Shown piece after piece: positions 1,782 to 64,000 of a stretch of 64,000 nucleotides of DNA (its first letter is position 1; the number at the start of each line of letters is the position of its first letter). The notes under the pieces were generated by a model. That model saw only the letters and a program-made list of their open reading frames with translations, did not search any database and had not been told where the DNA came from. The position numbers and the translations under genes were made by a program. Source of the DNA: Candidatus Omnitrophota bacterium (GTDB lineage: Bacteria > Omnitrophota > Gorgyraeia > Zapsychrales > Fredricksoniimonadaceae); NCBI GenBank assembly GCA_028870995.1, contig JAGWOI010000001.1:26273-90272 (forward strand). The letters are read 5' to 3'.

Positions 1782-1784
1782 ATC

Positions 1785-11892: not shown

Positions 11893-11907
11893 CAGAGAGG
11901 ATAAAAC

Positions 11908-14070: not shown

Positions 14071-14082
14071 AGGTTATGAACA

Positions 14083-17177: not shown

Positions 17178-17179
17178 GT

Positions 17180-44195: not shown

Positions 44196-44588
44196 ATGGA
44201 TTTTGACGATATGATGTTAACAGGCAAGGAATCGCCTATGCGCGACATTACCCATAAACAGACCGCAATCTTGGATGGCCGGGGCAAGGTGATCACCTTG
44301 CGCGAACATACCGATGAAAAAGAGTGCGTCACGGACGTGCGTAAGAATTTCATTTATGTGGCTGCTGAAGTGCCTATGGAAGAAAGGCCGGCGGCGCCGA
44401 AGGTGTATATCAAGAAATCTTTCGACAGTGTCACCCGCGATGAGAAGTTTTTCTTCCGGGTCAAAGGCATCCTGTATGTCAATCATTGCCGGCGCGTCAT
44501 GCAGGTGGCGTATTGTCATACGCTCAGGATCAATTTGCACTGGAAAGTCAAGACATCGACTCCCAAGAAGACCGTGACTATGGCCTAG
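44196..44588 (+). CDS. Hypothetical protein (130 aa)
   Basis: Strong RBS GGAGAGGGAG 8 nt upstream of ATG 44196. No recognised domain. Convergent with the GT2 gene. Confidence 0.45.
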   Translation: MDFDDMMLTGKESPMRDITHKQTAILDGRGKVITLREHTDEKECVTDVRKNFIYVAAEVPMEERPAAPKVYIKKSFDSVTRDEKFFFRVKGILYVNHCRRVMQVAYCHTLRINLHWKVKTSTPKKTVTMA

Positions 44589-46270: not shown

Positions 46271-47349
46271 GGGTTTGTCCGTATGTCCGCCTTTAAAGCG
46301 TCAGGCACCGGGATGTTCAATAGGGGATGATAGGCCAAAAGCTGAACGGCGCACAGCCTCCCGTCATTATTCAAATAAAAAAGTTCTCCTGTTTTGGGGG
46401 AAAAATACATATTTGCCGATGGGTCGGATTGGGCTATATCGTACATCCGCGGTCCGCCGAAATTCTCCCGGGGATAAAGACGGATACGTCCCTCCTGACG
46501 GATGATCCAGTCATGGCCGTCGTTGATAAGGAATTTGTCGGGGTTATTTTTAACCCGTGTCCTGATGGTCCCGGGCAGGACTTCCCCCGGATAAATCGCT
46601 TTGTCATGGATATTGATGCGGTAAATGCGGGTCGGATAAATCGCGAAGATGTTGTTGTCTGTGTTGTCCCACTCAACCGAGGACGGAACCTCAGGGAAAA
46701 GGTCGCTGATATCTTCGATGACAGGAGGTTTTCCGTTCAGGTTGACCCATAGGAATTTTGTTTTATCTTTAAGCGCCGCCTGCAGCAAGATAAAGGGGCT
46801 GGACGGTTCGTAATACAGGTGTGTCAGCCGCCCCTGGGCGTAAATGGAATTGGCCACCAACAGCGGCGCTGGTCCGGTCTCCTGGCCCATGGAAATAACG
46901 TCTGTATCCGCAAGCAGGGGATTGGCGGCGATCAGGGTGTCCTGACCGGCCCGGAAGATGTTGGCATAGGTTTTGACGGCAATGACCTTTATGGGCCATT
47001 CCTGAGGTATCAGCAGGGCGTTGGCCACCGTGGCTTTATTGGCTTCAACCGGAATGTAGCGTTCCCAGTCCGTATAGCCGTTGAGCTCAATGCGGATGAA
47101 ATGGCTGCCGGGTGTCAGGTCCCTCAACACTGCCGGTGTTTTGGAACGGCTCAAACGGCCGTCGACATAGACTGCCGCGTCCGGCGGGTTGGTGGCGATG
47201 AAGATCAGCCCTGTCCTCACCAGACGCTGGGTCAGCGGATTGACGGCAAACCCCAGCATGTGCGCCACGATCAAGGGGCATAGAATAAGGTAGATAAGGG
47301 CAAAGAGATAAAAGACAAGCTTTCTAAGCCGGGGCATGAACCAAATCAT
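46267..47349 (-). CDS. Membrane-anchored PEGA domain protein, co-transcribed partner of the GT2 synthase
   Basis: N-terminal TM helix, PEGA-like segment (ATNPPDAAVYVDGRLSRSKTPAVLRDLTPGSHFIRIELNGY), then an uncharacterised domain of about 230 aa. ATGA overlap with the GT2 gene. Confidence 0.6.
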   Translation of the reverse strand: MIWFMPRLRKLVFYLFALIYLILCPLIVAHMLGFAVNPLTQRLVRTGLIFIATNPPDAAVYVDGRLSRSKTPAVLRDLTPGSHFIRIELNGYTDWERYIPVEANKATVANALLIPQEWPIKVIAVKTYANIFRAGQDTLIAANPLLADTDVISMGQETGPAPLLVANSIYAQGRLTHLYYEPSSPFILLQAALKDKTKFLWVNLNGKPPVIEDISDLFPEVPSSVEWDNTDNNIFAIYPTRIYRINIHDKAIYPGEVLPGTIRTRVKNNPDKFLINDGHDWIIRQEGRIRLYPRENFGGPRMYDIAQSDPSANMYFSPKTGELFYLNNDGRLCAVQLLAYHPLLNIPVPDALKADIRTNP

Positions 47350-47476
47350 AGCTCAGCTTTGCCCTTCAGGCAACGGATAAATTATAACGCGCTGGACAAT
47401 TAGCGACGAAAAGGTTATACTCTACTGATTCCCAAATAAGAGATATTTAATAGTACTGAAGCGGCGCTTTCCCTCT

Positions 47477-50272
47477 ATGTTTAAGACAGAAGATGCCCAA
47501 GCCGGTTCGAGACTTGTTCCCATCAAAATCATCTTCCCTTATGCGGTCTTATCACTAATATGGATCTATCTCTCCGATGAAATTACCGCCCTCCTTTTCA
47601 GGCACGCCCAGGACCTGAAATATGCCATCGATCTGAAGGCCACTTTTTATGTCTCGGTGACCTCCATTATCCTGTATGCCTTGTTTCGTGGCGCGACGTA
47701 CCGGCTCAGGGACAGCGAACGCAAATACCGCTATCTTTTCGAGAATTCCGCCATTTCTATTTTGGAAGAGGATTTTTCAGAGATCAGGAAATTCATCGAC
47801 CGGCAGCGGGCCCTGGGGATCCGGGATTGGCGGGAGTACTTTCAGAACAATCCCCAAACGGTACGAGAATGTGCCTCGTGGGTGAGGATCATGGATTCGA
47901 ACCAGGAAGGTTTGCGGCTGGCGGGCGTTGCCGAATCCAAAGATATGGTGGGCAAGACCCTCGATTATTATTTTACCGAGGATTCCTACGCGGACTTTAA
48001 AGAGCAGCTTATTGCCTTGGCCGAAGGCGCCACTCAATGGAATGGTGAGCGGTCCGCCCGCGCCAGCGAAGGCGGGACCAAGGCGTACATCTACCGGATG
48101 TCGGTGATGCCGGGGCATGAAAAAGACCTTTCCCGGGTTTTGGTCTCCCTGGTGGATGTCACGGCCAACAAGAGTAATGTCAAAACCATTGAACTTAAAG
48201 AACAGCGGCTAAGGCAGATCATCGATCTTGTCCCGCATTTCATTTTTGCCAAGGACATCGAAGGACGTTTTGTTCTGGTCAATAAAGCCATCGCGAACGC
48301 CTATGGGACGACGGTTGAGAACCTTACCGGGAAAAAAGACGAAGACTTCATCAAATCACGCGCCCAGGTCAGGCATTTTCTTAAGGATGATCTGGAGGTG
48401 ATGCAGTCGGGTAAATCCAAATTCATCCCGCTGGAGCCCATCACCAATGCCCAGGGCCAGACCAGGTTTTTGGCAACGACCAAAATACCCTTTACAGCTT
48501 CAGGCATCGATTCGCCCTGTGTCCTGGGCGTTGCCATCGACATTACCGAATACAAGCAGGCGGAAGAGGCCTTGGCCCAAGGCCAGCATTTTATCGAGAG
48601 CGTGTTGAACGCCACCCCCAATCTGATTTATGTTTACGATTTGATCTCCAAGAGTAACGTTTACTTCAACCGCGGCCTGCACGACCTGTTGGGTTACACC
48701 GAGCAGCAGATAGAAGCCATGGGGGGAGAGCTTTTTAACATGATCCTGCATCCCGACGATCATGCCTCCGTCAGGGAACACCATCAGATGCTAATACAGG
48801 ACGGCAAGGTGAGGGAAATCGAGTGCCGCATGAAGGATGCGGGAGGCCAATGGCGCTGGATGAGAAGCCGGGATGTGGTTTTCGCGCGTACGCCCCAGGG
48901 GGAAGCCTGGCAGATCTTAGGCTCGGCTGAGGATGTTACCGAGCATAAATTGCTTGAAAATAAATATTGGACACTTTCCTATTATGATGCGGTGACCACC
49001 TTCCCCAACCGCACCTTGTTTTACGAACGGGCCAACCTGGGGCTCTCCCACGCCAAGCGCAGCAACATCGCCTGCGCCGTCCTGTTCATTGACCTGGACC
49101 ACTTTAAAAACGTCAACGACACCCTGGGCCATACGCTGGGCGATGAGCTGCTTAAGGACACGGCGGTCAAACTTTCCGAATGTGTCCGTGAAATAGACAC
49201 CATTGCCCGCCTGGGGTCGGATAAATTCATTGTTTTTTTAAACGGCCTTGAAGACGCTCAGAGCGCCCAGCACATCGCCGAGCGTATCCGCGAGAAGTTG
49301 AATACCACCCGCACCATCTGCAGCCAGGAGCTTTTTGTCACCGCCACCATCGGGATCGCCACCTTTCCCAATGACGGCAGCACCCTGGAGGAGCTTCTGA
49401 AGAACGCGGACACAGCCATGAATGCGGCCAAGGACGCGGGCCGCAATGCCTTTTGTTTTTTTAACGGCACCATGAACGAGAAGGCCGTCACCCGCATGCA
49501 GATTGAAAAGGGTTTAAGGGGGGCGCTGGCCAAAAACGAGTTCAAGCTATATTACCAGCCGATCATCGGCGTGGCGGACGGAGGCGTGCGGGGCTTTGAA
49601 GTCCTGCTGCGCTGGTTTAAGGCCGACGGTACGCTGGTTTATCCTAATGATTTCATCGGAATCGCGGAAGAAACCGGGCTCATCATCGGTATCGGCGAAT
49701 GGGTGTTGAAAGAGGCATGCCGCATGGGGAAGAAATGGCATGACATGGGGTTTGATGAGCTGGTCATGTCCGTCAATATTTCCGTCGTTCAGTTGAGGAC
49801 CCCGGCCATCATGGGAGCCATTAAAAAAGCCTTGGAAGAGACCGGGTTTCCGGCCCATTTCCTTGAAATTGAGGTCACGGAAAGCATTTTTATCAGCGCC
49901 TTCGACGCTTCCATCGGGGTGCTCCAAAAAATCCGCGATATGGGGGTACGGGTGGCGCTGGATGATTTCGGGACGGGCTATTCCTCGTTAAGCCATTTGC
50001 AGCGCCTGCCGATCACCACCCTGAAGATCGACCGGTTTTTCATCAAGGAGCTGATGAACGAAGGCATCGAAATGGCCATGACCGCCACCATCATCGAACT
50101 GGCCCACAACCTCAATCTCGGCGTTGTTGCCGAGGGCGTCGAGCACCAACAGCAGCTCAAGAGCCTGGCCAAGGAGAATTGCGATTATTTCCAAGGCTTT
50201 CTTTTCGGCAAACCCATGCCCGAGGACCAGGCCATGGCCTTCCTTAAGGATAACAGCAGCCCTTCCGTTTAA
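47477..50272 (+). CDS. Membrane PAS/PAC sensor with degenerate GGDEF (GSDKF) and EAL domains, probable c-di-GMP phosphodiesterase
   Basis: N-terminal TM segments and several PAS folds. GGDEF-domain motif RLGSDKF (non-canonical). EAL-domain motifs EVLLRW, DDFGTGYSSL, KIDRFF, EGVE and QGFLFGKP. Confidence 0.8.
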   Translation: MFKTEDAQAGSRLVPIKIIFPYAVLSLIWIYLSDEITALLFRHAQDLKYAIDLKATFYVSVTSIILYALFRGATYRLRDSERKYRYLFENSAISILEEDFSEIRKFIDRQRALGIRDWREYFQNNPQTVRECASWVRIMDSNQEGLRLAGVAESKDMVGKTLDYYFTEDSYADFKEQLIALAEGATQWNGERSARASEGGTKAYIYRMSVMPGHEKDLSRVLVSLVDVTANKSNVKTIELKEQRLRQIIDLVPHFIFAKDIEGRFVLVNKAIANAYGTTVENLTGKKDEDFIKSRAQVRHFLKDDLEVMQSGKSKFIPLEPITNAQGQTRFLATTKIPFTASGIDSPCVLGVAIDITEYKQAEEALAQGQHFIESVLNATPNLIYVYDLISKSNVYFNRGLHDLLGYTEQQIEAMGGELFNMILHPDDHASVREHHQMLIQDGKVREIECRMKDAGGQWRWMRSRDVVFARTPQGEAWQILGSAEDVTEHKLLENKYWTLSYYDAVTTFPNRTLFYERANLGLSHAKRSNIACAVLFIDLDHFKNVNDTLGHTLGDELLKDTAVKLSECVREIDTIARLGSDKFIVFLNGLEDAQSAQHIAERIREKLNTTRTICSQELFVTATIGIATFPNDGSTLEELLKNADTAMNAAKDAGRNAFCFFNGTMNEKAVTRMQIEKGLRGALAKNEFKLYYQPIIGVADGGVRGFEVLLRWFKADGTLVYPNDFIGIAEETGLIIGIGEWVLKEACRMGKKWHDMGFDELVMSVNISVVQLRTPAIMGAIKKALEETGFPAHFLEIEVTESIFISAFDASIGVLQKIRDMGVRVALDDFGTGYSSLSHLQRLPITTLKIDRFFIKELMNEGIEMAMTATIIELAHNLNLGVVAEGVEHQQQLKSLAKENCDYFQGFLFGKPMPEDQAMAFLKDNSSPSV

Positions 50273-54404: not shown

Positions 54405-54596
54405 ATGCCTGAAGACAAGAAAGACGAGAGTTGTTCGACGAAAAAAGGCTGCGGCTGCTGCGGCGGTGCCAAATTGCTGGCTGCACTGATCGTGGGGGCC
54501 TTTATTTTTGCCGCCGGCATGTGGTTCGCCAGGGCCCATTGCCAGGGCTTGGGCTATCATGCTTTTTGCCCTCTTAGCGCCCCTGCGGCGAAGTAG
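54405..54596 (+). CDS. Small Cys-rich membrane protein (63 aa), possible metal-binding peptide
   Basis: Strong RBS AAGGGGGGG 6 nt upstream. N-terminal CSTKKGCGCCGG cluster, then one TM helix and HCQG...FC. 3' end overlaps the convergent CDF gene by 23 nt. Confidence 0.45.
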   Translation: MPEDKKDESCSTKKGCGCCGGAKLLAALIVGAFIFAAGMWFARAHCQGLGYHAFCPLSAPAAK

Positions 54597-55491
54597 TTTT
54601 GGCGGCGGGTTCGATATGGACCAGCACATCGGCGATCCCCAGCGGTGACGCGATGAGCGCATCCTTGACATCGTGGCTGATGGCATGGGCGCGGTGCACC
54701 GGCATACTGCCGTCGACCTCCACGTGAATGTCGACGAATAATTCAATGCCGCTTTTGCGAACCTTGCATTTTTCGATGGCCACCACACCCGCCACCTTGC
54801 CGGCTAGCCCACGGATGGCTTCTTCGGTTTGAGGCGCCGGCGCGTGGTCCATGATTTCCTTCACCGCGCTTCTTAACATGTGAATGCCGTTAAACATGAT
54901 GATGCCGCTGGCCGCCAGGGCGGCCCAGGCGTCCGCGCTTTGGTATTTGGGGCCGCCTATGATGGCGATGGAAATGCCGGTAAAGGCAGCCAGGGAAGTC
55001 ATGGCATCGGAACGGTGGTGAAAGGCGTCCGCTTTAACGGAAAGGCTGTTGACGGATTCCCCGACGGCAAAGACAAATCTGAACAGCGTTTCCTTGACAA
55101 GGATGGCGATCACCAGGACAACAAGGGTAAAGGCTGCCGGCGTGTGATGGGGCTGCATGATATCAAGGACGCTTTTGACCGCGATGCTCAAACCCACCAG
55201 GACAAGGATGAGCGACACAGTCATGGCGGCCAGGGATTCGGCCCGGCCATGGCCGTAAGGATGGTCCTCATCCGCAGGGATCTCGGAGATCTTGATGCCG
55301 CCCAAAACCACCATGGATGAAAATATGTCCAGGGTGGACTCGATGCCGTCGGCAACAAGGGCATAGGAACTGCCCACGAGACCGGCGATGATTTTAACGG
55401 CCGCAAGGAATACATTGAAGGAAAGTCCGATTAAAACCGTGCTTAAGCTGCGGTCAAAACGGCTTGGGACTTTGGGGCTTTGAAAAACCAT
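54574..55491 (-). CDS. Cation diffusion facilitator family metal efflux transporter
   Basis: Six-TM CDF core with conserved Asp/His pairs in TM2 and TM5 (ALVADGIES...HHRSDA). C-terminal cytoplasmic domain. Confidence 0.8.
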   Translation of the reverse strand: MVFQSPKVPSRFDRSLSTVLIGLSFNVFLAAVKIIAGLVGSSYALVADGIESTLDIFSSMVVLGGIKISEIPADEDHPYGHGRAESLAAMTVSLILVLVGLSIAVKSVLDIMQPHHTPAAFTLVVLVIAILVKETLFRFVFAVGESVNSLSVKADAFHHRSDAMTSLAAFTGISIAIIGGPKYQSADAWAALAASGIIMFNGIHMLRSAVKEIMDHAPAPQTEEAIRGLAGKVAGVVAIEKCKVRKSGIELFVDIHVEVDGSMPVHRAHAISHDVKDALIASPLGIADVLVHIEPAAKTTSPQGR

Positions 55492-55548
55492 TGCCTCATC
55501 TTAAAACATCGCTTGCCATCATGCAAGAGAAGGTTATAATGGTTCACA

Positions 55549-56019
55549 ATGCAAAACGAAGTGATCTCTTTTGACTATGTATTGACAGCTAAATCGGGCC
55601 AGGTGATCGATGCCTCAGCCAAGGGCAGGCCTTTGATTTTTATTTCAGGCCTTGGGCAGATCATTCCAGGCCTGGAATTGATTTTGCAGCAAATGCAACC
55701 CAGTGAAAAGAAGACGGTGACCATTGCCGCCAAGGAGGCCTACGGTCTTCGCGATGAAAGCCTCGTGCATAAGGTCGACCGTTCCCGCCTGCCGAACCAG
55801 GAGATCAAGGTCGGCGACATGTTTGAAGTTGGGCAGGGCCAGGATTTCACTCCCGTTACCATTACCGCCATCAACGGCGATGAGATCACCCTGGACGGCA
55901 ATCATCCATTGGCCGGGGAGGACCTCACCTTTGCCGTGGAAGTCGTCAGCAAGCGGCTTGCCACCCCCGAGGAATTGGCTCACGGCCATGTGCATGGGGC
56001 CGGCGGCTGCCATCATTAA
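55549..56019 (+). CDS. slyD: FKBP-type peptidyl-prolyl isomerase SlyD-like with His/Cys-rich metal-binding tail
   Basis: FKBP fold with an inserted IF-like flap. C-terminal HGHVHGAGGCHH. Confidence 0.7.
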   Translation: MQNEVISFDYVLTAKSGQVIDASAKGRPLIFISGLGQIIPGLELILQQMQPSEKKTVTIAAKEAYGLRDESLVHKVDRSRLPNQEIKVGDMFEVGQGQDFTPVTITAINGDEITLDGNHPLAGEDLTFAVEVVSKRLATPEELAHGHVHGAGGCHH

Positions 56020-56125
56020 AAATATCCTAAAGTCTTGCAGCACGAAAGCTTTTGACCCTCATTCCAGCCCGGCTATTTAAAATCCATTGTAATATCAGCA
56101 GGATTTGTTATAATCAATCTTCCTT

Positions 56126-56146
56126 ATGTTACCCTTTGCGTAACAT
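56126..56146 (+). promoter_or_regulatory. Inverted repeat atgttac-N7-gtaacat just downstream of a TATAAT box (56109..56114), candidate operator of the alpha-glucan cluster
   Basis: Perfect 7-bp arms seen in the sequence, 27 nt upstream of the GT4 gene start. Confidence 0.35.
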
Positions 56147-56172
56147 AGGGTTAGATATGAGAAAGGCTCTAT

Positions 56173-57330
56173 ATGAGGGTTGCGCTTTTTTCCTGGGAGG
56201 CCGTTCATTCGGTGTTTGTCGGTGGCATTGGTTTGCATGTCACCGAACTGGCCTGCGCCCTGGAACGCAAAGGGCATGAAGTCCATGTCTTCACCCGCAT
56301 GGCACGGCCCGATCATCCTCATTACGAATGCATCCACGGCGTTCATTATCACCGCTGCCCCTTTGCTCCCCATCCTGATTTCATTGAAGAAGTAACTAAT
56401 ATGTGCCGTTCCTTCGTGGACAGTTTTCTGGCCACTGAAAACCATATCGGCCATTTCGATGTGATCCACGGGCATGACTGGCTCACCGCCCAGGCCCTGG
56501 AATGGATCAATAAGGCCAGACGCCATAAAACTATTTATACCATCCACTCGACCGAATACGGGCGGTGCGGCAATAATTTTTTTGAAGGCAACTCCAAGCG
56601 CGTCCGGCATTTGGAGTGGCTGGGCTCCTATTGCGCGGACAGGGTCATCACCGTTTCCAATGCCCTGAAGAATGAGGTCAAGTGGATCTACAATATCCCG
56701 GAAGATAAGACGGACGTGGTTTATAACGGTATCCGCTGTTCTGATTTCGACAGCTGGGTCGATCCGGGGGATGTCCGGCGCCGCTACGGCATCGGTCCCA
56801 TGGATCCCATGGTGCTGATCGTGGGACGCATGGTTTATCAGAAGGGGCCGGACCTGTTGGTTGCCGCCATTCCGTATGTATTGCAGTACTATCCGCATGC
56901 CAAATTTGTCTTTGCCGGTGACGGCGAAATGCGGGGCGAGATCGAGGGGCTTGCCGGCAGGTTGCATGTATCTCATGCCACCCGCTTCCTGGGCAAGCAG
57001 GGCGGTTTGGCGCTGAGGGACCTTTTTAAATCCACGGATTGCGTCTGCGTGCCCAGCCGCAACGAGCCTTTCGGCATCGTGATCCTTGAGGCCTGGAGCG
57101 CCGGCAAACCCGTGGTGGCCACTGTCAACGGCGGCCCTAATGAAATCATCTGGCATGATGTCAACGGCCTTAAAATCCGGGATAATCCGGAATCCATTGC
57201 TTGGGGTATCGGCACCCTTTTCCATGATTTTGACCATGCCAGGTGGATGGGGAATAACGGCCGCATGACCGTCGAGACTGCTTTCTCCTGGGATGTCATC
57301 GCCGATGAGACCTTGCAGGTATATTATTAA
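56173..57330 (+). CDS. GT-B (GT4-like, group 1) glycosyltransferase, probable alpha-glucan/glycogen synthase by context
   Basis: N-terminal MRVALFSWEAVHSVFVGGIGLHVTELA typical of GT4/GT5 glucosyltransferases. C-terminal E-x7-E-like region (EPFGIVILEA). Confidence 0.65.
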   Translation: MRVALFSWEAVHSVFVGGIGLHVTELACALERKGHEVHVFTRMARPDHPHYECIHGVHYHRCPFAPHPDFIEEVTNMCRSFVDSFLATENHIGHFDVIHGHDWLTAQALEWINKARRHKTIYTIHSTEYGRCGNNFFEGNSKRVRHLEWLGSYCADRVITVSNALKNEVKWIYNIPEDKTDVVYNGIRCSDFDSWVDPGDVRRRYGIGPMDPMVLIVGRMVYQKGPDLLVAAIPYVLQYYPHAKFVFAGDGEMRGEIEGLAGRLHVSHATRFLGKQGGLALRDLFKSTDCVCVPSRNEPFGIVILEAWSAGKPVVATVNGGPNEIIWHDVNGLKIRDNPESIAWGIGTLFHDFDHARWMGNNGRMTVETAFSWDVIADETLQVYY

Positions 57331-57364
57331 CCCGAAATGGAATGCGGAGGCTTAGAACGCCTTT

Positions 57365-58495
57365 ATGTCACCTGTCATTGACTCAACCGAGCTTCCGGCC
57401 TTAAGACGCCGCACCCGTTGCATCCTTGTCTCAAGGGACCCTAATACCCTTTGGGCTTATTGGGACCATACCCCGTCAGATAGGCAACAACGGACGTCGC
57501 GCCTCCAATCCCAATCGAAAAATATACGGTTTCTCCTGCGTGTTTATGATGTGACCCAGGTGAAATTCAACGGGGCCAACGCCAACCATGTTTGGGACAT
57601 GGAGGTGGGGCCTGGTGCAAAAAGCGCCTATATCAATGTATGGCAGGACAACGCGGATTATTGCGTGGAATACGGCCTGACCACCGGTAAAAAACATTTT
57701 ATGGCCCTGGCCCGTTCCAATATCGTGCGCGCACCGTCCAGGACCCCTTCGAAGAGGGATGACTTGATATGGCAGGACATCAAATTCCCCAAAAAATCGC
57801 CGGCCTACATTCAGGAAGATTTAAAGAAAGATATTAAGAGCCATTATCATGGCCTGATACAGCAGCAAAGTAAAGGAAGCTTCACTTCCGAAGGCCAGGC
57901 GCACGTTGAACGGCTAATAAAAGAGAAATATTCCCCCCAAGGCGAAGGGTTGCAAGCCAAATCAGGCCGGCGGCCCAGGGTTTATCATTTAACCGCCCAG
58001 GACATCCGGACTTATTATTTGAGATTTTTTCACCGCAAATCACGGCATCCCCGCGGCCTAAGGAGCCTTGTGGCAGGAATTCCCATTGGCATTTCCTGGC
58101 AAAAGGTCAGGCCGTTGATCAGTACTGTTGAATTGATAAAACACCTTCATCCGGCGGGCGCCTCCGAAAAACAAGCGCCGGGGGCCAGTGAAAACTTCGG
58201 AGGTGTCCAAGGCAGCGAAGGCCGTTTGAAGCAAAGAAAGTTTTTCTTTGAGATCTGGACCGAACTGATCGTCCATGGCCGCACCGAACCTGATGCCGCC
58301 GTGTGGCTGAACCAGAAAGGGGTTAAATTGAATCCCGATGGGACCTTCACGCTGCACTATGCCTTGCCTGACGGAGAGATTCCTTTGAAATTCGTTGCCC
58401 AATCAGCCGATGGGGTGGAGCAGCGTCATATCTATACGCGGGTAGAAAGGGAAAACACGGTTTATTTCCCCAAGATATTGAAAGCCTATGAATAA
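57365..58495 (+). CDS. DUF4912-like protein
   Basis: N-terminal CILVSRDPNTLWAYWD resembles the DUF4912 signature. This family often accompanies GH57 genes. Confidence 0.45.
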   Translation: MSPVIDSTELPALRRRTRCILVSRDPNTLWAYWDHTPSDRQQRTSRLQSQSKNIRFLLRVYDVTQVKFNGANANHVWDMEVGPGAKSAYINVWQDNADYCVEYGLTTGKKHFMALARSNIVRAPSRTPSKRDDLIWQDIKFPKKSPAYIQEDLKKDIKSHYHGLIQQQSKGSFTSEGQAHVERLIKEKYSPQGEGLQAKSGRRPRVYHLTAQDIRTYYLRFFHRKSRHPRGLRSLVAGIPIGISWQKVRPLISTVELIKHLHPAGASEKQAPGASENFGGVQGSEGRLKQRKFFFEIWTELIVHGRTEPDAAVWLNQKGVKLNPDGTFTLHYALPDGEIPLKFVAQSADGVEQRHIYTRVERENTVYFPKILKAYE

Positions 58496-60248
58496 AAATC
58501 CGAAAGGCTATTTGAGCCTTGTCCTTCACGCGCACCTGCCGTTTGTCCGGCATCCCGAGGAGAATTATTTCCTCGAGGAAAACTGGCTGTTCGAGGCCAT
58601 CACCGAGACCTATATTCCTTTGTTAAGGGTCTTCGAGGGGCTGGTGCGCGACGGGGTGGACTTCAACATCACCATGTCCGTGAGCCCGACGCTGGCGGCC
58701 ATGTTTACGGACCGCCTGCTGCAGGACCGTTATGTGCGCCATATCAATAAGCTCATTGAGCTGGCTGAAAAGGAACTCGACCGCACCGCCTATGATCCGC
58801 AGTTCCACGGGCTGGCGCTTATGTATTATCACCGTTTTCTCGATGCCCGCGATATCTTCGTCAACCAATACCAGAAGAACCTTATTAATGCATTCAAGAA
58901 ATTCCAGGAAGCTGGGTGTCTGGAGATCATTACCTGTTGCGCCACCCATGGCTTTTTGCCCAATTTGAATATAAGCGAATCCGCGGTTCGGTCCCAGATC
59001 GACATCGGGGTGGACCAGTACCGCCATCATTTCGGGGTGGATCCCAAGGGGATATGGCTTCCCGAGTGCGGCTTTTATCCGGGGCTGGACCGCTGGCTCA
59101 AGAAAGCAGGGATCAGCTATTTCTTTTGCGATTCACACGGGATCATGAATGCCGATCCGCAGCCGCAATACGGTGTCATGGCCCCGGTATATTGCCCCAG
59201 CGGGGTGGCGGCTTTTGGCCGTGATTGGGAAAGCTCCAAGCAGGTTTGGAGTTCCAAGGAGGGCTATCCCGGCGATCCTGATTACCGGGAATATTACCGC
59301 GATATCGGCTTTACGCTGGATTTTGAATACATTAAGCCTTATATCCATCCCATGGGGATCCGTCATAATACCGGGTTCAAATATTGGCGCATCACCGGCG
59401 ACACTGAGGCCAAGGCGCCGTATCAGCCGGATTGGGCTAGGAACAAGGCGGCTGTCCATGCCGGGAACTTCATGTTCAACCGCCAGAAACAGATCGAACA
59501 CCATTTTTTTCAAATGGACCGCAAGCCCATTGTCGTGGCCCCGTATGATGCCGAATTGTTCGGCCATTGGTGGTTTGAGGGCCCGCAATGGATCGATTTT
59601 TTATGCCGTAAGATCTTTTATGACCAGGACACCATCCAGATGACAACACCCTCCCAATATTTAAGGGAGTACACCACCAACCAGGTGGCCATGCCCAGCC
59701 AGTCGAGCTGGGGGTATAAAGGTTTTGGCGAATTCTGGCTTGAAGGCTGCAATGATTGGATCTATCCTTATCTTCATGAGGCCGCGGAGTTGATGGAAGA
59801 ACTGGCCAGGGAGAATGCGTCCTTGATCCAGGGAAACTTCGGCCGGAACCCCTTGAAGGCGGCCTTGCGCTACCGCGCCCTTAACCAGGCCGCGCGCGAG
59901 CTGCTGCTGGCCCAAGCCAGCGACTGGCCCTTTATCATGAAGGCCGGGACGATGGTGGCTTACGCCGAGAAAAGGGTCAAAACGCATATCAACCGTTTCT
60001 GGCGCCTGTACAACAGTTTGAAAGAGGATGCCATCGATGAGCCCTGGCTTAAGGAAATCGAATCCAGGGACAATATTTTTGGGGACACGAATTGCGTCCA
60101 GTATTATTTGGAAACGCGCAAAGCGGCGCGCAAGCCTGTGAAAACGTCCCAACCCCGAAAGCTCTTGAAGCAGGCCGCTCATTTGAAAAATGAGGTAGCG
60201 GCACGAAAGGAGGTCAATCATGAACGACATCATCGACAATTTGCCTAA
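58488..60248 (+). CDS. GH57-family 1,4-alpha-glucan branching enzyme / AmyC-like
   Basis: LSLVLHAHLPFVRHPEENYFLEENWLFEAITETYIPLL matches the N-terminus of GH57 branching enzymes. About 586 aa. Confidence 0.8.
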   Translation: MNKNPKGYLSLVLHAHLPFVRHPEENYFLEENWLFEAITETYIPLLRVFEGLVRDGVDFNITMSVSPTLAAMFTDRLLQDRYVRHINKLIELAEKELDRTAYDPQFHGLALMYYHRFLDARDIFVNQYQKNLINAFKKFQEAGCLEIITCCATHGFLPNLNISESAVRSQIDIGVDQYRHHFGVDPKGIWLPECGFYPGLDRWLKKAGISYFFCDSHGIMNADPQPQYGVMAPVYCPSGVAAFGRDWESSKQVWSSKEGYPGDPDYREYYRDIGFTLDFEYIKPYIHPMGIRHNTGFKYWRITGDTEAKAPYQPDWARNKAAVHAGNFMFNRQKQIEHHFFQMDRKPIVVAPYDAELFGHWWFEGPQWIDFLCRKIFYDQDTIQMTTPSQYLREYTTNQVAMPSQSSWGYKGFGEFWLEGCNDWIYPYLHEAAELMEELARENASLIQGNFGRNPLKAALRYRALNQAARELLLAQASDWPFIMKAGTMVAYAEKRVKTHINRFWRLYNSLKEDAIDEPWLKEIESRDNIFGDTNCVQYYLETRKAARKPVKTSQPRKLLKQAAHLKNEVAARKEVNHERHHRQFA

Positions 60249-61872
60249 CATTTTTTTCCAAACCAACGGGTTTGCGGCCCCTAAAAAAAGGAAGCTGTAC
60301 AGCCCGTGTTCCAATATCGACTTTAAAAAAGTAAGGTCTTCTTTTGGTATCGCCCTTCACATGCATCAGCCCACGATACCGGCCGGCGGCCAGGACCTGC
60401 ATACCGCGGCCCTTATTTCCAATCTTCAGCATATGTTCGACAACCCCGGTATCGGGGACAATCACAACGCCTCCGTGTTTTTCTGGTGTTATCAGCGCAT
60501 GGCGGAGTTCGTCCCTAAACTCGTCAGCGAGGGCAAAAGTCCCCGGATCATGCTGGATTATTCCGGGAACCTGCTGTGGGGATTAGGGCAAATGAACAAC
60601 GGGGTGGCGCTGGACAATTTGAAGAAGATCACCTGCGACAAGTCATATTATCCTTATGTGGAGTGGCTGGGCACCATGTGGTCGCATTCGGTGGTGACAT
60701 CCACACCCATCCCTGATATCAAACTGCACCTGATGGCCTTCCGCCATCATTTTGCCTCCATTTTCGGCAAGGAAGCGGAAGAGCGCATCAAGGGATTCTC
60801 CGCGCCGGAGATGCATCTGCCCATTCACCCGGATGTCTGCTATGAGTATGTCAAAGCGCTTAAAGAGTGCGGCTACGAGTGGCTGATGGTGCAGGAACAT
60901 ACCATTGAGAATTTCAACGGCCGCGGCATCAGTGATCCGTATGTCCCGCACAAGCTGGTGGCCAAGAATTCCTTGGGGCAGATCCAGGAAATCACTGTAC
61001 TCGTCAAGACCCAGGGTTCGGACACCAAATTGGTGGCCCAGATGCAGCCCTTGTTCGAGGCACGCGGGCTGTCCCGGCAGGAATACGCTGGACAAATGAT
61101 CCCGCCTTTTGTATGCCAGATCGGTGACGGCGAAAACGGCGGAGTGATGATGAATGAATTTCCGCCCATGTATAACCAGTGCATCCAGGGCCTTTCCACG
61201 GAAGGGACCGTGGCGCTCAACGGTTCGGAATACCTGGAGTTTTTGGAGGGTATGGGTGTCGATCCCAAGGATTTTACGGCTGTCCAGCCCATTGCCCAGC
61301 ACCGCATTTGGGAGAAGGTCAAAAAATTCGAGCCGCAGGCCGCCAACAAGGCCATCGAGGAGCTGCAGCGCCAGGACAAATCCTTCAACCTTGACCGCGG
61401 CTCATGGACCAGCGACCGGGACTGGGTCAAGGGGTATGAACAGGTGCTTGATCCCATCAATGCCTTGAGTGTGGCCTTCCATAATAAATTCGACGGCAAG
61501 AACATCGACAGGAATTCCAAGTCCTACAAGGAAGCGCTACTGTACCTGTTGCTGTCACAGACCAGCTGTTTCCGTTATTGGGGACAGGGCATTTGGACGG
61601 ATTACGCCAAGGAACTTTGCCGGCGGGGGATGGAGATCATCAATAAAGGAAAGACCTTCGCCATGGCCCAGACCTCCGCTTCCAAGAACATTGCCAGGTC
61701 CCAGGCGGTCAGCGCCTTAAACCAGGACATATTCAACAACCCCGATGTGGCTAAGGAAATCGAAAAGCACAAATGGTGTGAAAGCGAAAAAGCCGGCCGT
61801 GATGTAGGTTATGAATGGGCCAAGGAGGACTGGCTTAAACGATACGGAGAACTATGGGTACAGACTCATTGA
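60220..61872 (+). CDS. GH57-like glycoside hydrolase family protein (second copy, divergent)
   Basis: FGIALHMHQPTIP (HxHQP) motif typical of GH57 amylases/glucanotransferases. Otherwise divergent. Confidence 0.5.
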   Translation: MNDIIDNLPNIFFQTNGFAAPKKRKLYSPCSNIDFKKVRSSFGIALHMHQPTIPAGGQDLHTAALISNLQHMFDNPGIGDNHNASVFFWCYQRMAEFVPKLVSEGKSPRIMLDYSGNLLWGLGQMNNGVALDNLKKITCDKSYYPYVEWLGTMWSHSVVTSTPIPDIKLHLMAFRHHFASIFGKEAEERIKGFSAPEMHLPIHPDVCYEYVKALKECGYEWLMVQEHTIENFNGRGISDPYVPHKLVAKNSLGQIQEITVLVKTQGSDTKLVAQMQPLFEARGLSRQEYAGQMIPPFVCQIGDGENGGVMMNEFPPMYNQCIQGLSTEGTVALNGSEYLEFLEGMGVDPKDFTAVQPIAQHRIWEKVKKFEPQAANKAIEELQRQDKSFNLDRGSWTSDRDWVKGYEQVLDPINALSVAFHNKFDGKNIDRNSKSYKEALLYLLLSQTSCFRYWGQGIWTDYAKELCRRGMEIINKGKTFAMAQTSASKNIARSQAVSALNQDIFNNPDVAKEIEKHKWCESEKAGRDVGYEWAKEDWLKRYGELWVQTH

Positions 61873-63782
61873 TGCAGCCTTTTATCACGGATCACGACAT
61901 TTATCTTTTTAAAGAGGGCAACCACTTTAAGCTTTATGAAAAACTGGGCGCCCATCCCATGGTCATGGACGGGCAGCCGGGCGTGTATTTTGCCGTCTGG
62001 GCTCCCAATGCCAAGAGCGTTTCGGTCATCGGTAATTTCAACCAATGGCAGCGCGACAGCCATCCTTTAAAATCACGCTGGGACTCTTCCGGCATATGGG
62101 AAGTTTTTATCCCAGGCCTGGCCAAGGGGGAATTGTATAAGTATTTTATTACCTCCCGGGACGGCTACCAGGTGGAAAAATCCGATCCCTTTGCCTTTTA
62201 TAACGAGGTGGCGCCGAATTTCGGTTCCATTGTCTGGGACCATGAGTACCAATGGCAGGACAGCCAATGGATGAAGGAGCGCTACCGCCACAACAGCCTG
62301 GAGGCGCCGATTTCCATTTACGAGCTGCACATCGGCTCCTGGAAGAGGGTGGTGGAAGAGGAGCACAGGCCCTTGACCTACAGGGAATTGGCCTTGCAGC
62401 TGCCCGATTATTTGGAATACATGGGTTATACCCATGTCGAGTTTCTGCCGGTCATGGAATATCCGTTCTACGGTTCCTGGGGGTATCAGACCCTGGGCTA
62501 TTTTTCGCCCACCAGCCGTTTCGGCACGCCGCAGGATTTCATGTATTTGGTGGATTGCCTGCACCAGCGGGGGATCGGTGTCATCTTAGACTGGGTGCCG
62601 TCGCATTTCCCCACTGACGAGCACGGGCTGGTCTACTTTGACGGCACACACCTTTTTGAACACGCAGACACCAGGAGAGGCTACCATCCGGACTGGAAGA
62701 GCGCCATTTTCAATTACGGCCGTAACGAGATCAGGGAATTTTTGATCTCCTCGGCCATGTTCTGGATGGAAAAATTCCACGCGGACGGCCTGCGGGTGGA
62801 TGCGGTTGCTTCCATGCTTTATCTGGATTATTCCAGGGGCGATGCCTGGATCCCCAACGAACATGGCGGCCGGGAAAACCTTGAGGCCATTTATTTCCTG
62901 CGCCGGCTCAATGAGGTGATCTACGGCAATTTTCCTGATGTCCAGATGATCGCCGAGGAATCCACCGCCTGGAGCGGGGTATCCCGTCCCACCTTTGTGG
63001 GCGGCCTGGGTTTCGGCATGAAATGGAACATGGGCTGGATGCATGACACCCTGGTGTATATCACCAAGGACCCCATTTACCGTAAATATCACCACAATGA
63101 CCTGACCTTCTCGTTCTTGTACGCCTTTTCCGAGAATTTCATGCTGTCGCTTTCCCACGATGAGGTCACCCATGGCAAAGGGGCTTTGGCCGGCAAGATG
63201 CCGGGGGATCACTGGCAGCAGATGGCTAATTTACGTTTATTGCTGGGGTATATGTTTGCCCATCCAGGTAAAAAACTGCATTTTATGGGTGCCGAGTTCG
63301 CCCAGTGGGCAGAATGGAACCACGAGCATAGTATTGAGTGGCATTTGTTGCAGCATGAACCGCACAAAGGTGTCCAGCAATGGGTGCGGGACCTGAACCA
63401 TTTTTACCGCAGTGAGCCGGCTTTGTATGAAAAGGATTTTACGCCGGAAGGCTTTGAGTTCATCGATTTCAGCGATTATCAAAACAGCATCATCAGTTTC
63501 ATCCGCAAATCCGCCGACGGGAAATCCCAGGTGCTGGCGGTATGCAATTTTACGCCGCAGACCTGGAAGAATTACCGCGTGGGCGTGTCGCAGGGCGGGT
63601 TCTGGAAGGAAGCGCTCAACTCCGATGCCAAGATCTATTGGGGCAGCAATCAGGGCAATTCCGGCGGCCTGCAGGCCGAGGCTTGCCCCACGCACGGCAA
63701 ACCGTTCTCGCTGGATTTGACCATACCGCCTTTAGGGATTTTATTCATGAAGCATTTGGCCGATGAGGGGAATAAATCCTGA
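61854..63782 (+). CDS. glgB: 1,4-alpha-glucan branching enzyme GlgB (GH13)
   Basis: ITDHDIYLFKEGNHFKLYEKLGAHP N-terminus. GH13 regions GVILDWVPSHF, GLRVDAV and EESTAW. Confidence 0.9.
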   Translation: MGTDSLMQPFITDHDIYLFKEGNHFKLYEKLGAHPMVMDGQPGVYFAVWAPNAKSVSVIGNFNQWQRDSHPLKSRWDSSGIWEVFIPGLAKGELYKYFITSRDGYQVEKSDPFAFYNEVAPNFGSIVWDHEYQWQDSQWMKERYRHNSLEAPISIYELHIGSWKRVVEEEHRPLTYRELALQLPDYLEYMGYTHVEFLPVMEYPFYGSWGYQTLGYFSPTSRFGTPQDFMYLVDCLHQRGIGVILDWVPSHFPTDEHGLVYFDGTHLFEHADTRRGYHPDWKSAIFNYGRNEIREFLISSAMFWMEKFHADGLRVDAVASMLYLDYSRGDAWIPNEHGGRENLEAIYFLRRLNEVIYGNFPDVQMIAEESTAWSGVSRPTFVGGLGFGMKWNMGWMHDTLVYITKDPIYRKYHHNDLTFSFLYAFSENFMLSLSHDEVTHGKGALAGKMPGDHWQQMANLRLLLGYMFAHPGKKLHFMGAEFAQWAEWNHEHSIEWHLLQHEPHKGVQQWVRDLNHFYRSEPALYEKDFTPEGFEFIDFSDYQNSIISFIRKSADGKSQVLAVCNFTPQTWKNYRVGVSQGGFWKEALNSDAKIYWGSNQGNSGGLQAEACPTHGKPFSLDLTIPPLGILFMKHLADEGNKS

Positions 63783-63794
63783 TGCAGGAGGATA

Positions 63795-64000
63795 TGGTGT
63801 ACAAAGTCAAGGCGGATTTTTTAAGGTGTTTAGGTCATCCGGTCCGCCTGAAACTCATCGAAGAGCTCAAGACCGGCGAGAAAAGCGTCGGCTATTTGGT
63901 CGATAAATTCAAGATCGGCCAATCCAGCATTTCCCGCCATCTTTTGGCCCTGCGTAATGCCGGGATCCTTTCGTCCCGGCAGCAAAGGACCACGGTATAC
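63795..64000 (+). CDS. ArsR/SmtB-family transcriptional regulator (3' end lies outside the window)
   Basis: LGHPVRLKLIEELKTGEKSVGYLVDKFKIGQSSISRHL winged-helix motif. Runs off the end of the window. Confidence 0.7.

Follow-up and report, generated by a model that had tools for sequence, protein, structure and literature searches.

The locus described here is an operon predicted to build and remodel a glycogen-like store in an uncultured Omnitrophota bacterium. Its four-gene core encodes a GT4 glycosyltransferase, a DUF4912 protein, an AmyC-type GH57 enzyme and a divergent GH57-like protein (GH57L), and probably serves cytoplasmic alpha-glucan (glycogen-type) synthesis and remodeling alongside the classical GlgC, GlgA and GlgP rather than replacing them. 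All parts of the operon already carry generic annotation in public records, and the pathway is not new in kind. The locus and its relatives are a concrete conserved genetic unit linking a GT4 enzyme, an AmyC-type GH57 enzyme, an uncharacterized GH57 subfamily and DUF4912.

Organization of the operon

In the window, the 64-kb stretch of DNA that was analyzed, a tightly packed plus-strand operon occupies positions 56173-63782 and runs on into an ArsR-type gene at 63782. It encodes the four core proteins and a GH13 GlgB and, with the ArsR-type gene, comprises six genes.

56173-57330, plus strand: GT4 retaining glycosyltransferase, 385 aa, a putative alpha-1,4-glucan synthase
57365-58495, plus strand: DUF4912 protein, 376 aa (PF16258, E 9e-29)
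58488-60248, plus strand: AmyC-type GH57 glucan branching/transglycosylating enzyme, 586 aa (PF03065, 128 bits; PF09210 (BE_C), 117 bits)
60220-61872, plus strand: GH57L, 550 aa (GH57 motifs, invariant Glu/Asp pair, AlphaFold model)
61854-63782, plus strand: classical GH13 1,4-alpha-glucan branching enzyme GlgB, 642 aa (NF003811, TIGR01515)
63782-64000, plus strand: ArsR/SmtB-family HTH regulator gene (HTH_5, PF01022, E 3.5e-11 on a 73-aa fragment)

Neighboring genes overlap (spacing of -1 to -29 nt) apart from a single gap of 34 nt, and translational coupling is seen within the operon. The ATG of the ArsR gene overlaps the glgB stop codon (TGATG), and the gene is cut by the end of the window; a full-length 108-aa orthologue occupies the same position in two related loci (L082 and L083). 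GlgB scores 965 bits to NF003811 (cutoff 741) and 905 bits to TIGR01515 (cutoff 464) and has the CBM48, alpha-amylase and Alpha-amylase_C architecture. Its gene is attached to the cassette solely in the nearest clade (L001-L004, L082 and L083).

The earlier note had named the five genes from GT4 to glgB, within 56109-63782, and had called them an alpha-glucan cluster; all five are confirmed, on the plus strand, and the description is supported. Its statement that the cluster lacks glgC and a GT5-type glgA holds within the 64-kb window: none of glgC, GT5 glgA, glgP, glgE, treS and malQ was found in the 53 ORFs scanned of the 58 called elsewhere in it, the other five being smaller, and glgX was likewise not found within 64 kb. 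The note had also taken two distinct branching enzymes plus an extra GH57 as a sign of a non-classical pathway. This is unsupported; the combination of GH13 and GH57 branching enzymes in one genome is already documented in Petrotoga and Mycobacterium tuberculosis (PMC10708623).

Conservation and gene neighborhoods

The GT4-DUF4912-GH57-GH57L order is the same in ~20 Omnitrophota loci, with GH57L identities of 58-81%, and in 10 loci a small CBM48/AMPK-type glycogen-binding protein is encoded upstream of GT4. In L025 the cassette is immediately followed by genes for a GT5 GlgA (TIGR02095, 560 bits; cutoff 328), GlgC (NF002772, 569 bits; cutoff 537) and a glycogen phosphorylase (TIGR02093, 1193 bits; cutoff 553). 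GlgA also comes after GH57L in L007 and L010, the latter having GlgC as well, and the 485-aa genes that follow GH57L in these three loci score 542-560 bits to TIGR02095. In other phyla GH57L adjoins GlgX (Gemmataceae, L033), a DUF3417-type alpha-glucan phosphorylase (L023, L026 and L028) or, in the cyanobacterium L079, glgA with glgC nearby. Genes for GlgE, TreS and maltokinase were not conspicuous either in the window or in the recurrent neighborhood of the related loci, which are partly annotated. For this reason, and because the cassette adjoins glgA, glgC and glgP in other Omnitrophota and the GH57L gene adjoins glgX, glgA or phosphorylase genes in other phyla, we read the cassette as an add-on to ADP-glucose glycogen metabolism. 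The suggestion in the earlier note of a non-classical or GlgE-like route in place of glgC and glgA is at odds with these same neighborhoods.

In Omnitrophota and Planctomycetota the inheritance of GH57L is tightly tied to that of GT4, and many cyanobacteria have GH57L without GT4. Planctomycetota clusters carry two extra glycosyltransferases, so the product there may not be plain glucan. The cassettes of L001 and L004 have genes for a polyphosphate kinase and a ROK kinase at their flanks, as would suit a role in storage.

The GT4 glycosyltransferase

The GT4 protein matches the Pfam families Glycos_transf_1, Glyco_transf_4 and Glyco_transf_5 and has both halves of a GT-B enzyme, PF13439 at the N terminus (105 bits) and PF00534 at the C terminus (122 bits), each above cutoff. 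The EX7E motif is present in the translation as NEPFGIVILE. Identity across Omnitrophota is 67-89%, and public records name the protein 'GT4 family protein' or 'glycogen synthase'. Among its 44 NCBIfam matches, TIGR02149 ('glgA_Coryne'/GlgM) is the best and aligns over the full length with 149 bits, half of its cutoff of 302; the score for the GT5 GlgA model TIGR02095 is 84 bits against a cutoff of 328, and with none of the curated GT4 or GT5 glucan-synthase models does the protein reach the cutoff. The sucrose-phosphate synthase model gives 47 bits as compared with 149 for GlgM, and the possibility raised in the earlier note of a sucrose- or trehalose-related enzyme can be set aside. The role of GT4 'glycogen synthases', like that of poorly branching GH57 'branching enzymes', is still an open question (PMC11046441, PMC10346327), and if a GlgA exists elsewhere in the genome, this second synthase is left without explanation.

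One alternative takes the GT4 enzyme as a GlgM-type maltose-1-phosphate synthase and a GH57 protein, for which GH57L is the most likely candidate, as a non-GH13 maltosyltransferase that would polymerize maltose-1-phosphate to a product branched by GlgB. The end-to-end alignment with TIGR02149, the family of the actinobacterial GT4 'GlgA' now called GlgM, the 76-bit match to solved GlgM (6tvp) and the co-inheritance of GT4 with GH57L speak for it, and a review holds that Gram-positive GT4 'GlgA' coexisting with GlgE is better regarded as GlgM (PMC11046441). Nevertheless, the TIGR02149 score is far under its cutoff, in the PDB the protein matches sucrose-phosphate synthase, MshA and archaeal GlgA equally well or better, GlgE (GH13_3), TreS and maltokinase did not stand out in the window or among recurrent neighbors, and GH57L is found in many cyanobacteria that lack the GT4, as well as next to GlgA, GlgC, GlgP or GlgX. 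Nor is any GH57 enzyme known to act with a sugar-phosphate donor, which counts further against this alternative, and we regard it as very improbable.

The DUF4912 protein and the AmyC-type GH57 enzyme

The DUF4912 protein begins with an FN3/Ig-like beta-sandwich and ends with a beta domain, the two being joined by a disordered linker in which GASE motifs recur; the family has essentially no literature. In two Planctomycetota loci (L039 and L050) DUF4912 is fused to GT4, and in Bryobacterales L051 it lies directly upstream of a GH57-GT5 starch-synthase fusion. Because of these arrangements, we propose that DUF4912 is a non-catalytic partner of a glucan synthase or branching enzyme. Both the DUF4912-GT4 and the GH57-GT5 fusions point directly, and in a way that can be tested, to proteins that are physical partners.

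The product of the gene at 58488-60248 has the features of a GH57 branching enzyme, namely the catalytic domain, BE_C, the nucleophile Glu and the proton-donor Asp. It aligns over its full length with Thermotoga maritima AmyC (2b5d; 511 bits), and the catalytic residues Glu193 (WLPEC) and Asp354 (PYDAELFGHWW) align with those of AmyC and are invariant in eight orthologues. 'True' high-activity GH57 branching enzymes of Thermococcus, Pyrococcus and Thermus have a 17-20-residue loop with a conserved Tyr and two adjacent beta-strands (Xiang et al.; PMC10346327). In the window enzyme the flexible Tyr loop is missing, with gaps opposite both segments in the alignments with 5wu7 and 3n8t, and the enzyme aligns without gaps to the loop-less AmyC. 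Of the GH57 'branching enzymes', 92% branch poorly (PMC11046441, PMC10346327). PMC6616209, PMC10346327 and PMC10708623 describe AmyC-type enzymes as weak in branching and strong in hydrolysis or transglycosylation, acting in synergy with a GH13 branching enzyme.

AmyC was originally reported as an intracellular alpha-amylase, and its hydrolytic activity is high (PMC6616209). This, with the phosphorylases and GlgX that adjoin GH57L in several phyla, would be in keeping with a mainly catabolic cassette in which both GH57 proteins degrade stored or imported alpha-glucan and GT4 and DUF4912 are incidental neighbors. The order of the four core genes is, however, fixed over wide divergence, the genes in the window are translationally coupled, DUF4912 is fused to GT4 and adjoins the GH57-GT5 synthase fusion, and a biosynthetic GlgB is appended in this clade, so that we think a catabolic role quite improbable.

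The product of the cassette might also be not bulk glycogen but something specialized, either a small, branched alpha-glucan or a metabolite carrying glucose, on the model of mycobacterial Rv3032/Rv3031. Rv3032 is a GT4 alpha-1,4-glucosyltransferase adjacent to Rv3031, and the pair builds the glucan backbone of methylglucose lipopolysaccharide. The role of Rv3031 (GH57) is cited in PMC10708623, which also reports low-molecular-weight products for AmyC-type enzymes. The same GT4 and GH57-branching-enzyme pairing occurs here, the separate GlgA and GlgC genes adjoining the L025 cassette suggest a non-redundant product, and the extra glycosyltransferases in Planctomycetota clusters point the same way. 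Against this, the cassette and its surroundings contain no genes for methyltransferases, acyltransferases or glucosylglycerate, and the recurrent neighbors are CBM48 glycogen-binding proteins, GlgB, GlgP and GlgX. A specialized product is accordingly judged improbable.

The divergent GH57-like protein

GH57L has the motifs HMHQP, EWxGTxWSH, PEM (Glu197), DGENGG (Asp303) and SQxSxxRYWG. His47, His49, Gln50, Pro51, Glu148, Glu197, Asp303, Glu305 and the Arg452-Tyr453-Trp454 block are invariant in 22 sequences, and the second GH57-like protein described in the earlier note thereby keeps its catalytic pair, Glu197 and Asp303. The Asp of CSR-5 is replaced by Cys in most members of the family. The window protein has no Pfam match of its own (none to PF03065 at E < 0.1); PF03065 is matched by 7 of the 22 homologues (best E 8.7e-9). 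One of the 22 members has an alpha-glucan water dikinase Ig-like N-terminal domain (PF23166), and a weak CBM_21 starch-binding match is seen in one of the 22. The window protein ends in a clade-specific C-terminal tail that weakly resembles DUF4032. An identical protein is named 'glycosyl hydrolase family 57' by NCBI, and the subfamily has >8000 database members, many cyanobacteria among them.

No sequence-level match of GH57L to any solved GH57 was found, and an hhalign comparison with the cassette's own GH57 enzyme was insignificant. The AlphaFold model, however, gives a Foldseek probability of 1.00 to seven solved GH57 structures, with an E value of 1.8e-9 for the Thermococcus litoralis 4-alpha-glucanotransferase and values between 1e-8 and 4e-7 for GH57 branching enzymes. 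In the model Glu197 follows a strand at 192-194 and Asp303 follows a strand at 297-303, and the predicted structure agrees with the GH57 fold, a (beta/alpha)7-barrel in which the nucleophile Glu comes after beta-4 and the proton-donor Asp after beta-7. By its fold and intact dyad GH57L represents a GH57 subfamily, whose specificity could be any within alpha-glucan chemistry.

Promoter and leader

Three features upstream of the GT4 gene were located.

56087-56114, plus strand: sigma-70-type promoter, TTGTAA (56087-56092), 16-nt spacer and TG-extended TATAAT (56109-56114)
56126-56146, plus strand: leader palindrome, perfect, ATGTTAC-N7-GTAACAT, at ~+5 to +25 relative to the probable start of transcription
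56157-56172, plus strand: 16-nt insertion, from the alignment with relatives

The promoter scores 10 of 12 against the consensus, with TG preceding the -10 box, and the block is nearly invariant in four relatives (L001, L002, L004 and L082); the TATAAT box pointed out in the earlier note is thus part of an extended -10 promoter. The insertion creates an out-of-frame upstream ATG, giving a 40-codon uORF that overlaps the GT4 start, and also supplies a new AAAGG Shine-Dalgarno sequence.

The palindrome had been put forward as an operator, and it could serve the operon's own ArsR-family repressor in autoregulation. It is a perfect 7-N7-7 repeat directly downstream of the -10 box, occurs only once in the window (matched in 0 of 100 shuffles), and the ArsR gene is translationally coupled to glgB. 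It extends into an 11-bp RNA stem (hairpin, -16.1 kcal/mol; z, -5.3). Neither the palindrome nor the hairpin is kept in L001, L002, L004 or L082, although the promoter is kept there. L082 and L083 share the promoter and a closely similar ArsR in the same position, yet the left half-site is degenerate there (TGAACTC in place of ATGTTAC). Since the palindrome is not kept even in relatives that keep both promoter and ArsR gene, the operator role is unsupported, and autoregulation through this site is doubtful.

Model for the function of the operon

In the add-on reading that we favor, the single extended -10 promoter would drive the operon, and the GH13 glgB and ArsR-type genes would have been added to the core in this clade. 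The GT4 enzyme would transfer glucose from NDP-glucose, probably ADP-glucose, making or priming alpha-1,4 chains. DUF4912, which has two beta-sandwich modules and a disordered linker and no catalytic features, may tether the synthase or branching enzyme to the glucan, or target it there, as the chains grow; its fusions and fold suggest this. By homology to characterized AmyC, the AmyC-type enzyme would introduce some alpha-1,6 branches and act mainly in chain trimming and disproportionation. GH57L may add one more hydrolytic or transfer reaction on alpha-glucan, and that it resembles a 4-alpha-glucanotransferase or an amylase in activity is a guess; GlgB, from its family membership, would be responsible for bulk branching.

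Bacterial glycogen synthesis is usually described in terms of GlgC-GlgA-GlgB or of GlgE. Confirmation of the model given here would provide a function for two orphan families, GH57L and DUF4912, and a reason why many bacteria have both GH13 and GH57 branching-type enzymes. A more far-reaching reading, which we consider possible but unlikely, is that GT4, DUF4912, the AmyC-type enzyme and GH57L, often with the small CBM48 protein, are an unrecognized module for glycogen-particle initiation or organization across several phyla, with DUF4912 serving the synthase as its own scaffold or targeting partner, comparable to glycogenin or plant PTST, and with a GH57L specificity new to GH57. In its extreme version, GH57L would be a non-GH13 transferase substituting for GlgE or MalQ.

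Comparison with known systems

The classical glgBXCAP operon, with GT5 GlgA and GlgC, shares with the window operon its probable end product and GlgB, and the cassettes of L025, L007 and L010 are contiguous with genes from among glgA, glgC and glgP. It differs in that GT4 is the only synthase candidate in the window, where glgC, glgA, glgP and glgX were not found among the ORFs scanned in the 64 kb. The GlgE pathway (GlgM/TreS-Pep2, GlgE, GlgB) also has a GlgM-related GT4 and a GH13 GlgB, but GlgE, TreS and maltokinase were not detected among the 53 window ORFs scanned or the recurrent neighbors, and the window GT4 is under the GlgM cutoff. M. tuberculosis has the GT4 and GH57 pairing of Rv3032/Rv3031 and a GH13 GlgB in the same genome (PMC10708623 for Rv3031 and GlgB), a likeness at the level of families; the window cassette is without methyltransferase and acyltransferase genes and includes DUF4912 and GH57L, neither of which the M. 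tuberculosis locus is known to have.

The structure that the GH57L model matches best, the T. litoralis 4-alpha-glucanotransferase (1k1w), has the HQP motif, the nucleophile Glu after beta-4 and the Asp after beta-7 in equivalent order. Identity is only ~17%, however, the TM-score is ~0.43, and the lengths and C-terminal domains differ; for these reasons, together with the lack of a sequence match and the Cys in CSR-5, a shared specificity is unproven.

The closest known counterparts of the window GH57 enzyme are T. maritima AmyC (TM1438) and other loop-less GH57 'glycogen branching enzymes', with which it shares the catalytic Glu/Asp, the four-helix BE_C domain and the lack of the Tyr loop and beta-strands. 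No description of AmyC in a GT4/DUF4912/second-GH57 neighborhood was found in the literature. The window enzyme differs from T. maritima AmyC in coming from a mesophilic-type candidate phylum and in that its gene is fixed in one operon with those for GT4, DUF4912 and a further GH57 protein.

Organization of the gene cluster

The earlier note described a cluster of five alpha-glucan genes with a promoter and a palindrome. All of these elements are present, as established from the ORF listing of the window and from Pfam and NCBIfam searches:

56087–56114, promoter: TTGTAA, 16-nt spacer, TG-extended TATAAT
56126–56146, palindrome of 7-N7-7 form (ATGTTAC-N7-GTAACAT), unique in the window
56173–57330, plus strand, GT4 glycosyltransferase (Pfam and NCBIfam)
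57365–58495, plus strand, DUF4912 protein (Pfam model covers residues 16–132 only)
58488–60248, plus strand, GH57 plus BE_C protein (Pfam and NCBIfam)
60220–61872, plus strand, ORF of the divergent GH57-like protein (GH57L), without a family match in Pfam or NCBIfam
61854–63782, plus strand, GlgB (NF003811, 965 bits against a cutoff of 741)
63782–64000, cut by the window end, ArsR/SmtB-family regulator gene (HTH_5, E 3.5e-11)

The gene identities, the promoter, and the palindrome were all verified, and the observation is therefore confirmed; the span reported for it starts at the −10 box and ends with the glgB stop codon. The five plus-strand genes lie in succession, with a 34-nt gap at the first junction and overlaps of 8, 29, and 19 nt at the following three. 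The ATG of the ArsR gene overlaps the glgB stop codon (TGATG), so that this is the sixth gene of the run. No signal peptide was apparent in the five N termini, as judged by reading the sequences. The cluster lacks glgC and a GT5-type glgA, as had been claimed, and no glgC, glgA, glgP, glgX, malQ, glgE, or treS was found among the 53 of the 58 other window ORFs that were scanned; these include genes for respiratory cytochromes, for signalling proteins and transporters, and for the synthesis of aromatic amino acids.

Genes for multihaem c-type cytochromes, including a 933-residue protein and a cytochrome-b fusion, follow one another at 11125–19957; a 720-residue ORF among them (11908–14070) has no Pfam match. 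At 44585–50272, the gene of a 931-residue PAS-GGDEF-EAL protein has minus-strand genes for a PEGA-domain protein and a GT2-family glycosyltransferase next to it; the group could represent an exopolysaccharide unit linked to c-di-GMP. Just upstream of the operon (54574–56019), a minus-strand cation-diffusion-facilitator transporter gene is divergent from that of a SlyD-like FKBP isomerase whose tail is rich in His and Cys. Locus L082, from the window's nearest clade, is syntenic with this pair at 1368–3932 and has an additional 380-residue polytopic membrane protein, with no Pfam match, encoded between the FKBP gene and the GT4 gene.

The GT4 and AmyC-type GH57 proteins

The GT4 protein has both GT-B halves and the EX7E motif. 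Its top curated match, the actinobacterial GT4 "GlgA" (GlgM) model, covers the full length with 149 bits, far short of the 302 required; the GT5 GlgA model gives 84 bits and that of sucrose-phosphate synthase 47 bits. Among solved structures, cyanobacterial sucrose-phosphate synthase, MshA, archaeal GlgA, and GlgM are about equally distant (76–88 bits). Since the domains and motif are present and the curated cutoffs are missed, the protein is assigned by sequence to GT4, yet outside every characterised glucan-synthase family at curated thresholds. Public names for it are "GT4 family protein" or "glycogen synthase". With 67–89% identity across Omnitrophota, it is the most conserved member of the cassette, as we term the first four genes. 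For Methanoculleus, PMC11046441 points to a GT4 gene that lies between glgB and a GH57 gene as possibly encoding an uncharacterised glycogen synthase.

The first GH57 protein matches AmyC of T. maritima (2b5d) over its full length at 511 bits and the branching enzymes of Pyrococcus and Thermococcus at about 290 bits, and is an AmyC-type enzyme by sequence. Its catalytic Glu (WLPEC, E193) and Asp (PYDAELFGHWW, D354) are kept and are invariant in eight orthologues. The loop-less group, to which this protein belongs, accounts for ∼92% of annotated GH57 branching enzymes; its members show low branching and comparatively high hydrolysis and alpha-1,4-transglycosylation (PMC10346327); the product of AmyC has 8.5% branches (PMC6616209).

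GH57L

GH57L, of 550 residues, is 100% identical to an NCBI protein that carries the name "glycosyl hydrolase family 57". The family is very large, with >8000 database clusters, the best 120 being all at least 63% identical. Five motifs are invariant in 22 aligned members: H47-x-H49-Q50-P51, E148-W-x-G-T-x-W-S-H, P196-E197-M198, D303-G-E-N-G-G, and S446-Q-x-S-x-x-R-Y-W-G. A PF03065 match occurs in 7 of 22 relatives (best E 8.7e-9) and not in the window protein. The AlphaFold2 model (pLDDT 78) gives a Foldseek probability of 1.00 to GH57 structures, the top match being T. litoralis 4-alpha-glucanotransferase (E 1.8e-9), with the four GH57 branching-enzyme structures next. In this model, E197 and D303 lie just past predicted strands 192–194 and 297–303, the sites expected for the β-4 nucleophile and the β-7 proton donor. 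Loss of the Glu/Asp pair, which the earlier note had named as a refuting finding, is thus not seen, E197 and D303 being invariant in the 22 members.

Sequence and profile searches against PDB chains gave no relevant match, the only hits being chance ones between the C-terminal tail and MHC chains, and hhalign of the GH57L family with the AmyC-type family of the cassette gave a probability of 2%. Because these sequence-level comparisons are negative, the GH57 assignment rests on the fold, the motifs, and the partial Pfam matches, which identify GH57L as a putative separate GH57 subfamily. The N terminus of one family member is an alpha-glucan water dikinase Ig-like domain (PF23166), and a weak CBM_21 starch-binding match occurs in one member; both point to alpha-glucan as the probable substrate.

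In the window's clade, GH57L has an extra 70-residue tail with weak resemblance to the C-terminal end of DUF4032. The tail (61650–61869, residues about 478–550; EIEKHKWxESEKAGxDVGxEWAxEDW) is found only in copies that are followed by glgB. L025 also encodes, ∼2 kb upstream of its cassette (663–1967), a shorter second paralogue of 434 residues with no NCBIfam match.

The DUF4912 protein

The DUF4912 protein comprises a confidently modelled N-terminal FN3/Ig-like β-sandwich, a linker of low model confidence with repeated G-A-S-E motifs, and a second conserved β domain at the C terminus (RKFFFEIW...DGTF...). The fold search gave generic FN3/Ig-like matches only, with no functional lead; nothing suggests catalysis, and the mentions of DUF4912 found in the literature searched are incidental. 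Six-frame HMM searches and Pfam were used to place DUF4912 in high-GC loci of Planctomycetota and Acidobacteriota. Both Planctomycetota loci (L039, 2633–4405; L050, 2994–4790) encode the N-domain as a fusion with a second GT4, and in a Bryobacterales locus (L051, 9640–13546) a stand-alone DUF4912 gene directly precedes that of a 1063-residue fusion of a GH57 branching enzyme and a GT5 starch synthase. As predicted associations, these fusions tie DUF4912 to a glucan synthase and branching step, and they support alpha-1,4-glucan as the likely product of the associated glycosyltransferase.

The cassette in related genomes

Searching GTDB representative genomes with a GH57L profile yielded 80 loci. 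The order GT4-DUF4912-GH57-GH57L is kept in ∼20 Omnitrophota loci, as determined by tblastn and ORF clustering, with lowest identities of 58% for GH57L and 27% for DUF4912. GlgB is appended only in the nearest relatives (L001–L004, L082, and L083); in L013 it is upstream of the cassette. In ten Omnitrophota loci (L007, 320–682, and nine others) the cassette is led, immediately upstream of GT4, by a protein of ∼120 residues that consists of a basic N terminus and a single CBM48/AMPK-type glycogen-binding module and is missing from the window's clade.

The earlier note had derived a non-classical, GlgE-like route from the missing glgC and glgA. That proposal had a 64-kb window as its basis, and it is contradicted by relatives in which the cassette is joined to GlgA, GlgC, and GlgP. 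The gene order in L025 is CBM48-GT4-DUF4912-GH57-GH57L-GlgA(GT5)-GlgC-GlgP-PEPCK; in L007 and L010 GH57L is followed by GlgA, with GlgC next in L010, and the glg genes joined to the cassette in these three loci all score above curated NCBIfam cutoffs. Outside Omnitrophota, GH57L again has neighbours from glycogen metabolism: GlgX comes next in Gemmataceae locus L033, and in L023, L026, and L028 the following gene encodes an alpha-glucan phosphorylase of the DUF3417 type. In most cyanobacteria GH57L is solitary; in one (L079) it adjoins glgA, with glgC near. Neither the window nor the set of recurrent neighbours in the partly annotated related loci gave an evident gene for GlgE, TreS, or maltokinase.

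In L001 (11833–16570) and L004 (152–3213) the cassette has genes for polyphosphate kinase PPK1 and a ROK-family sugar kinase at its flanks, and the L001 flank also holds a Ppx/GppA phosphatase. This arrangement fits a storage-polymer neighbourhood and suggests co-location of polyphosphate and glucan storage genes in these two loci.

Promoter, palindrome, and ArsR gene

The promoter block is near-invariant in L001, L002, L004, and L082. The palindrome, which had been proposed as an operator, was not found in the leaders of 18 related loci, and its symmetry is not conserved in relatives with the same promoter, including L082 and L083, which have an ArsR gene. In both, a closely similar ArsR gene also overlaps the end of glgB (in L082, 11628–11954, a full-length 108-residue orthologue at the same position), and the left half-site is degenerate; a conserved operator of the ArsR regulator is therefore unlikely. 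The regulator is without an ELCVCDL-type cysteine motif. Co-occurrence of palindrome and ArsR gene was likewise rejected, L082 having the gene and no palindrome.

The palindrome may instead serve window-specific regulation or mRNA stability. Perfect symmetry and a strong hairpin (z −5.3) are found in the window only, z being −0.6 to −1.2 in L001, L002, and L004 (single-sequence folds of four leaders); RNAalifold of five leaders (window, L001, L002, L004, and L082) gave a weak consensus of −3.4 kcal/mol with no covariation. Relative to four relatives, the window has a 16-nt insertion (56157–56172) that introduces an upstream ATG in another frame; the 40-codon uORF that begins there overlaps the start of GT4. 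The insertion also gives GT4 a new AAAGG ribosome-binding site.

Interpretation and comparison with known systems

The interpretation offered in the earlier note is supported in part. The locus belongs to glycogen-type alpha-glucan metabolism and represents no new pathway. In the best-supported reading of the sequence data, the operon would serve intracellular alpha-glucan synthesis and remodelling as a supplement to classical ADP-glucose glycogen metabolism. The presence of two mechanistically distinct branching enzymes, to which the earlier note drew attention, is already documented for Petrotogaceae and M. tuberculosis (PMC10708623). Synergy of GH13 and GH57 enzymes gives denser, shorter branches (PMC10708623).

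Literature searches on DUF4912, on Rv3032/Rv3031/GH57, and on the genes that surround those of AmyC and GH57 branching enzymes turned up no earlier account of the cassette, and the fixed four-gene arrangement with DUF4912 and GH57L, together with the DUF4912 fusions, appears to be undescribed so far. The value of the locus is that its conserved cassette puts DUF4912 and the GH57L subfamily, both orphan families, in a clear and testable functional context. The nearest conceptual precedent for a GT4 enzyme paired with a GH57 enzyme is Rv3032/Rv3031 of M. tuberculosis, with Rv3032 as the GT4 partner. The role of Rv3031 is cited in PMC10708623.
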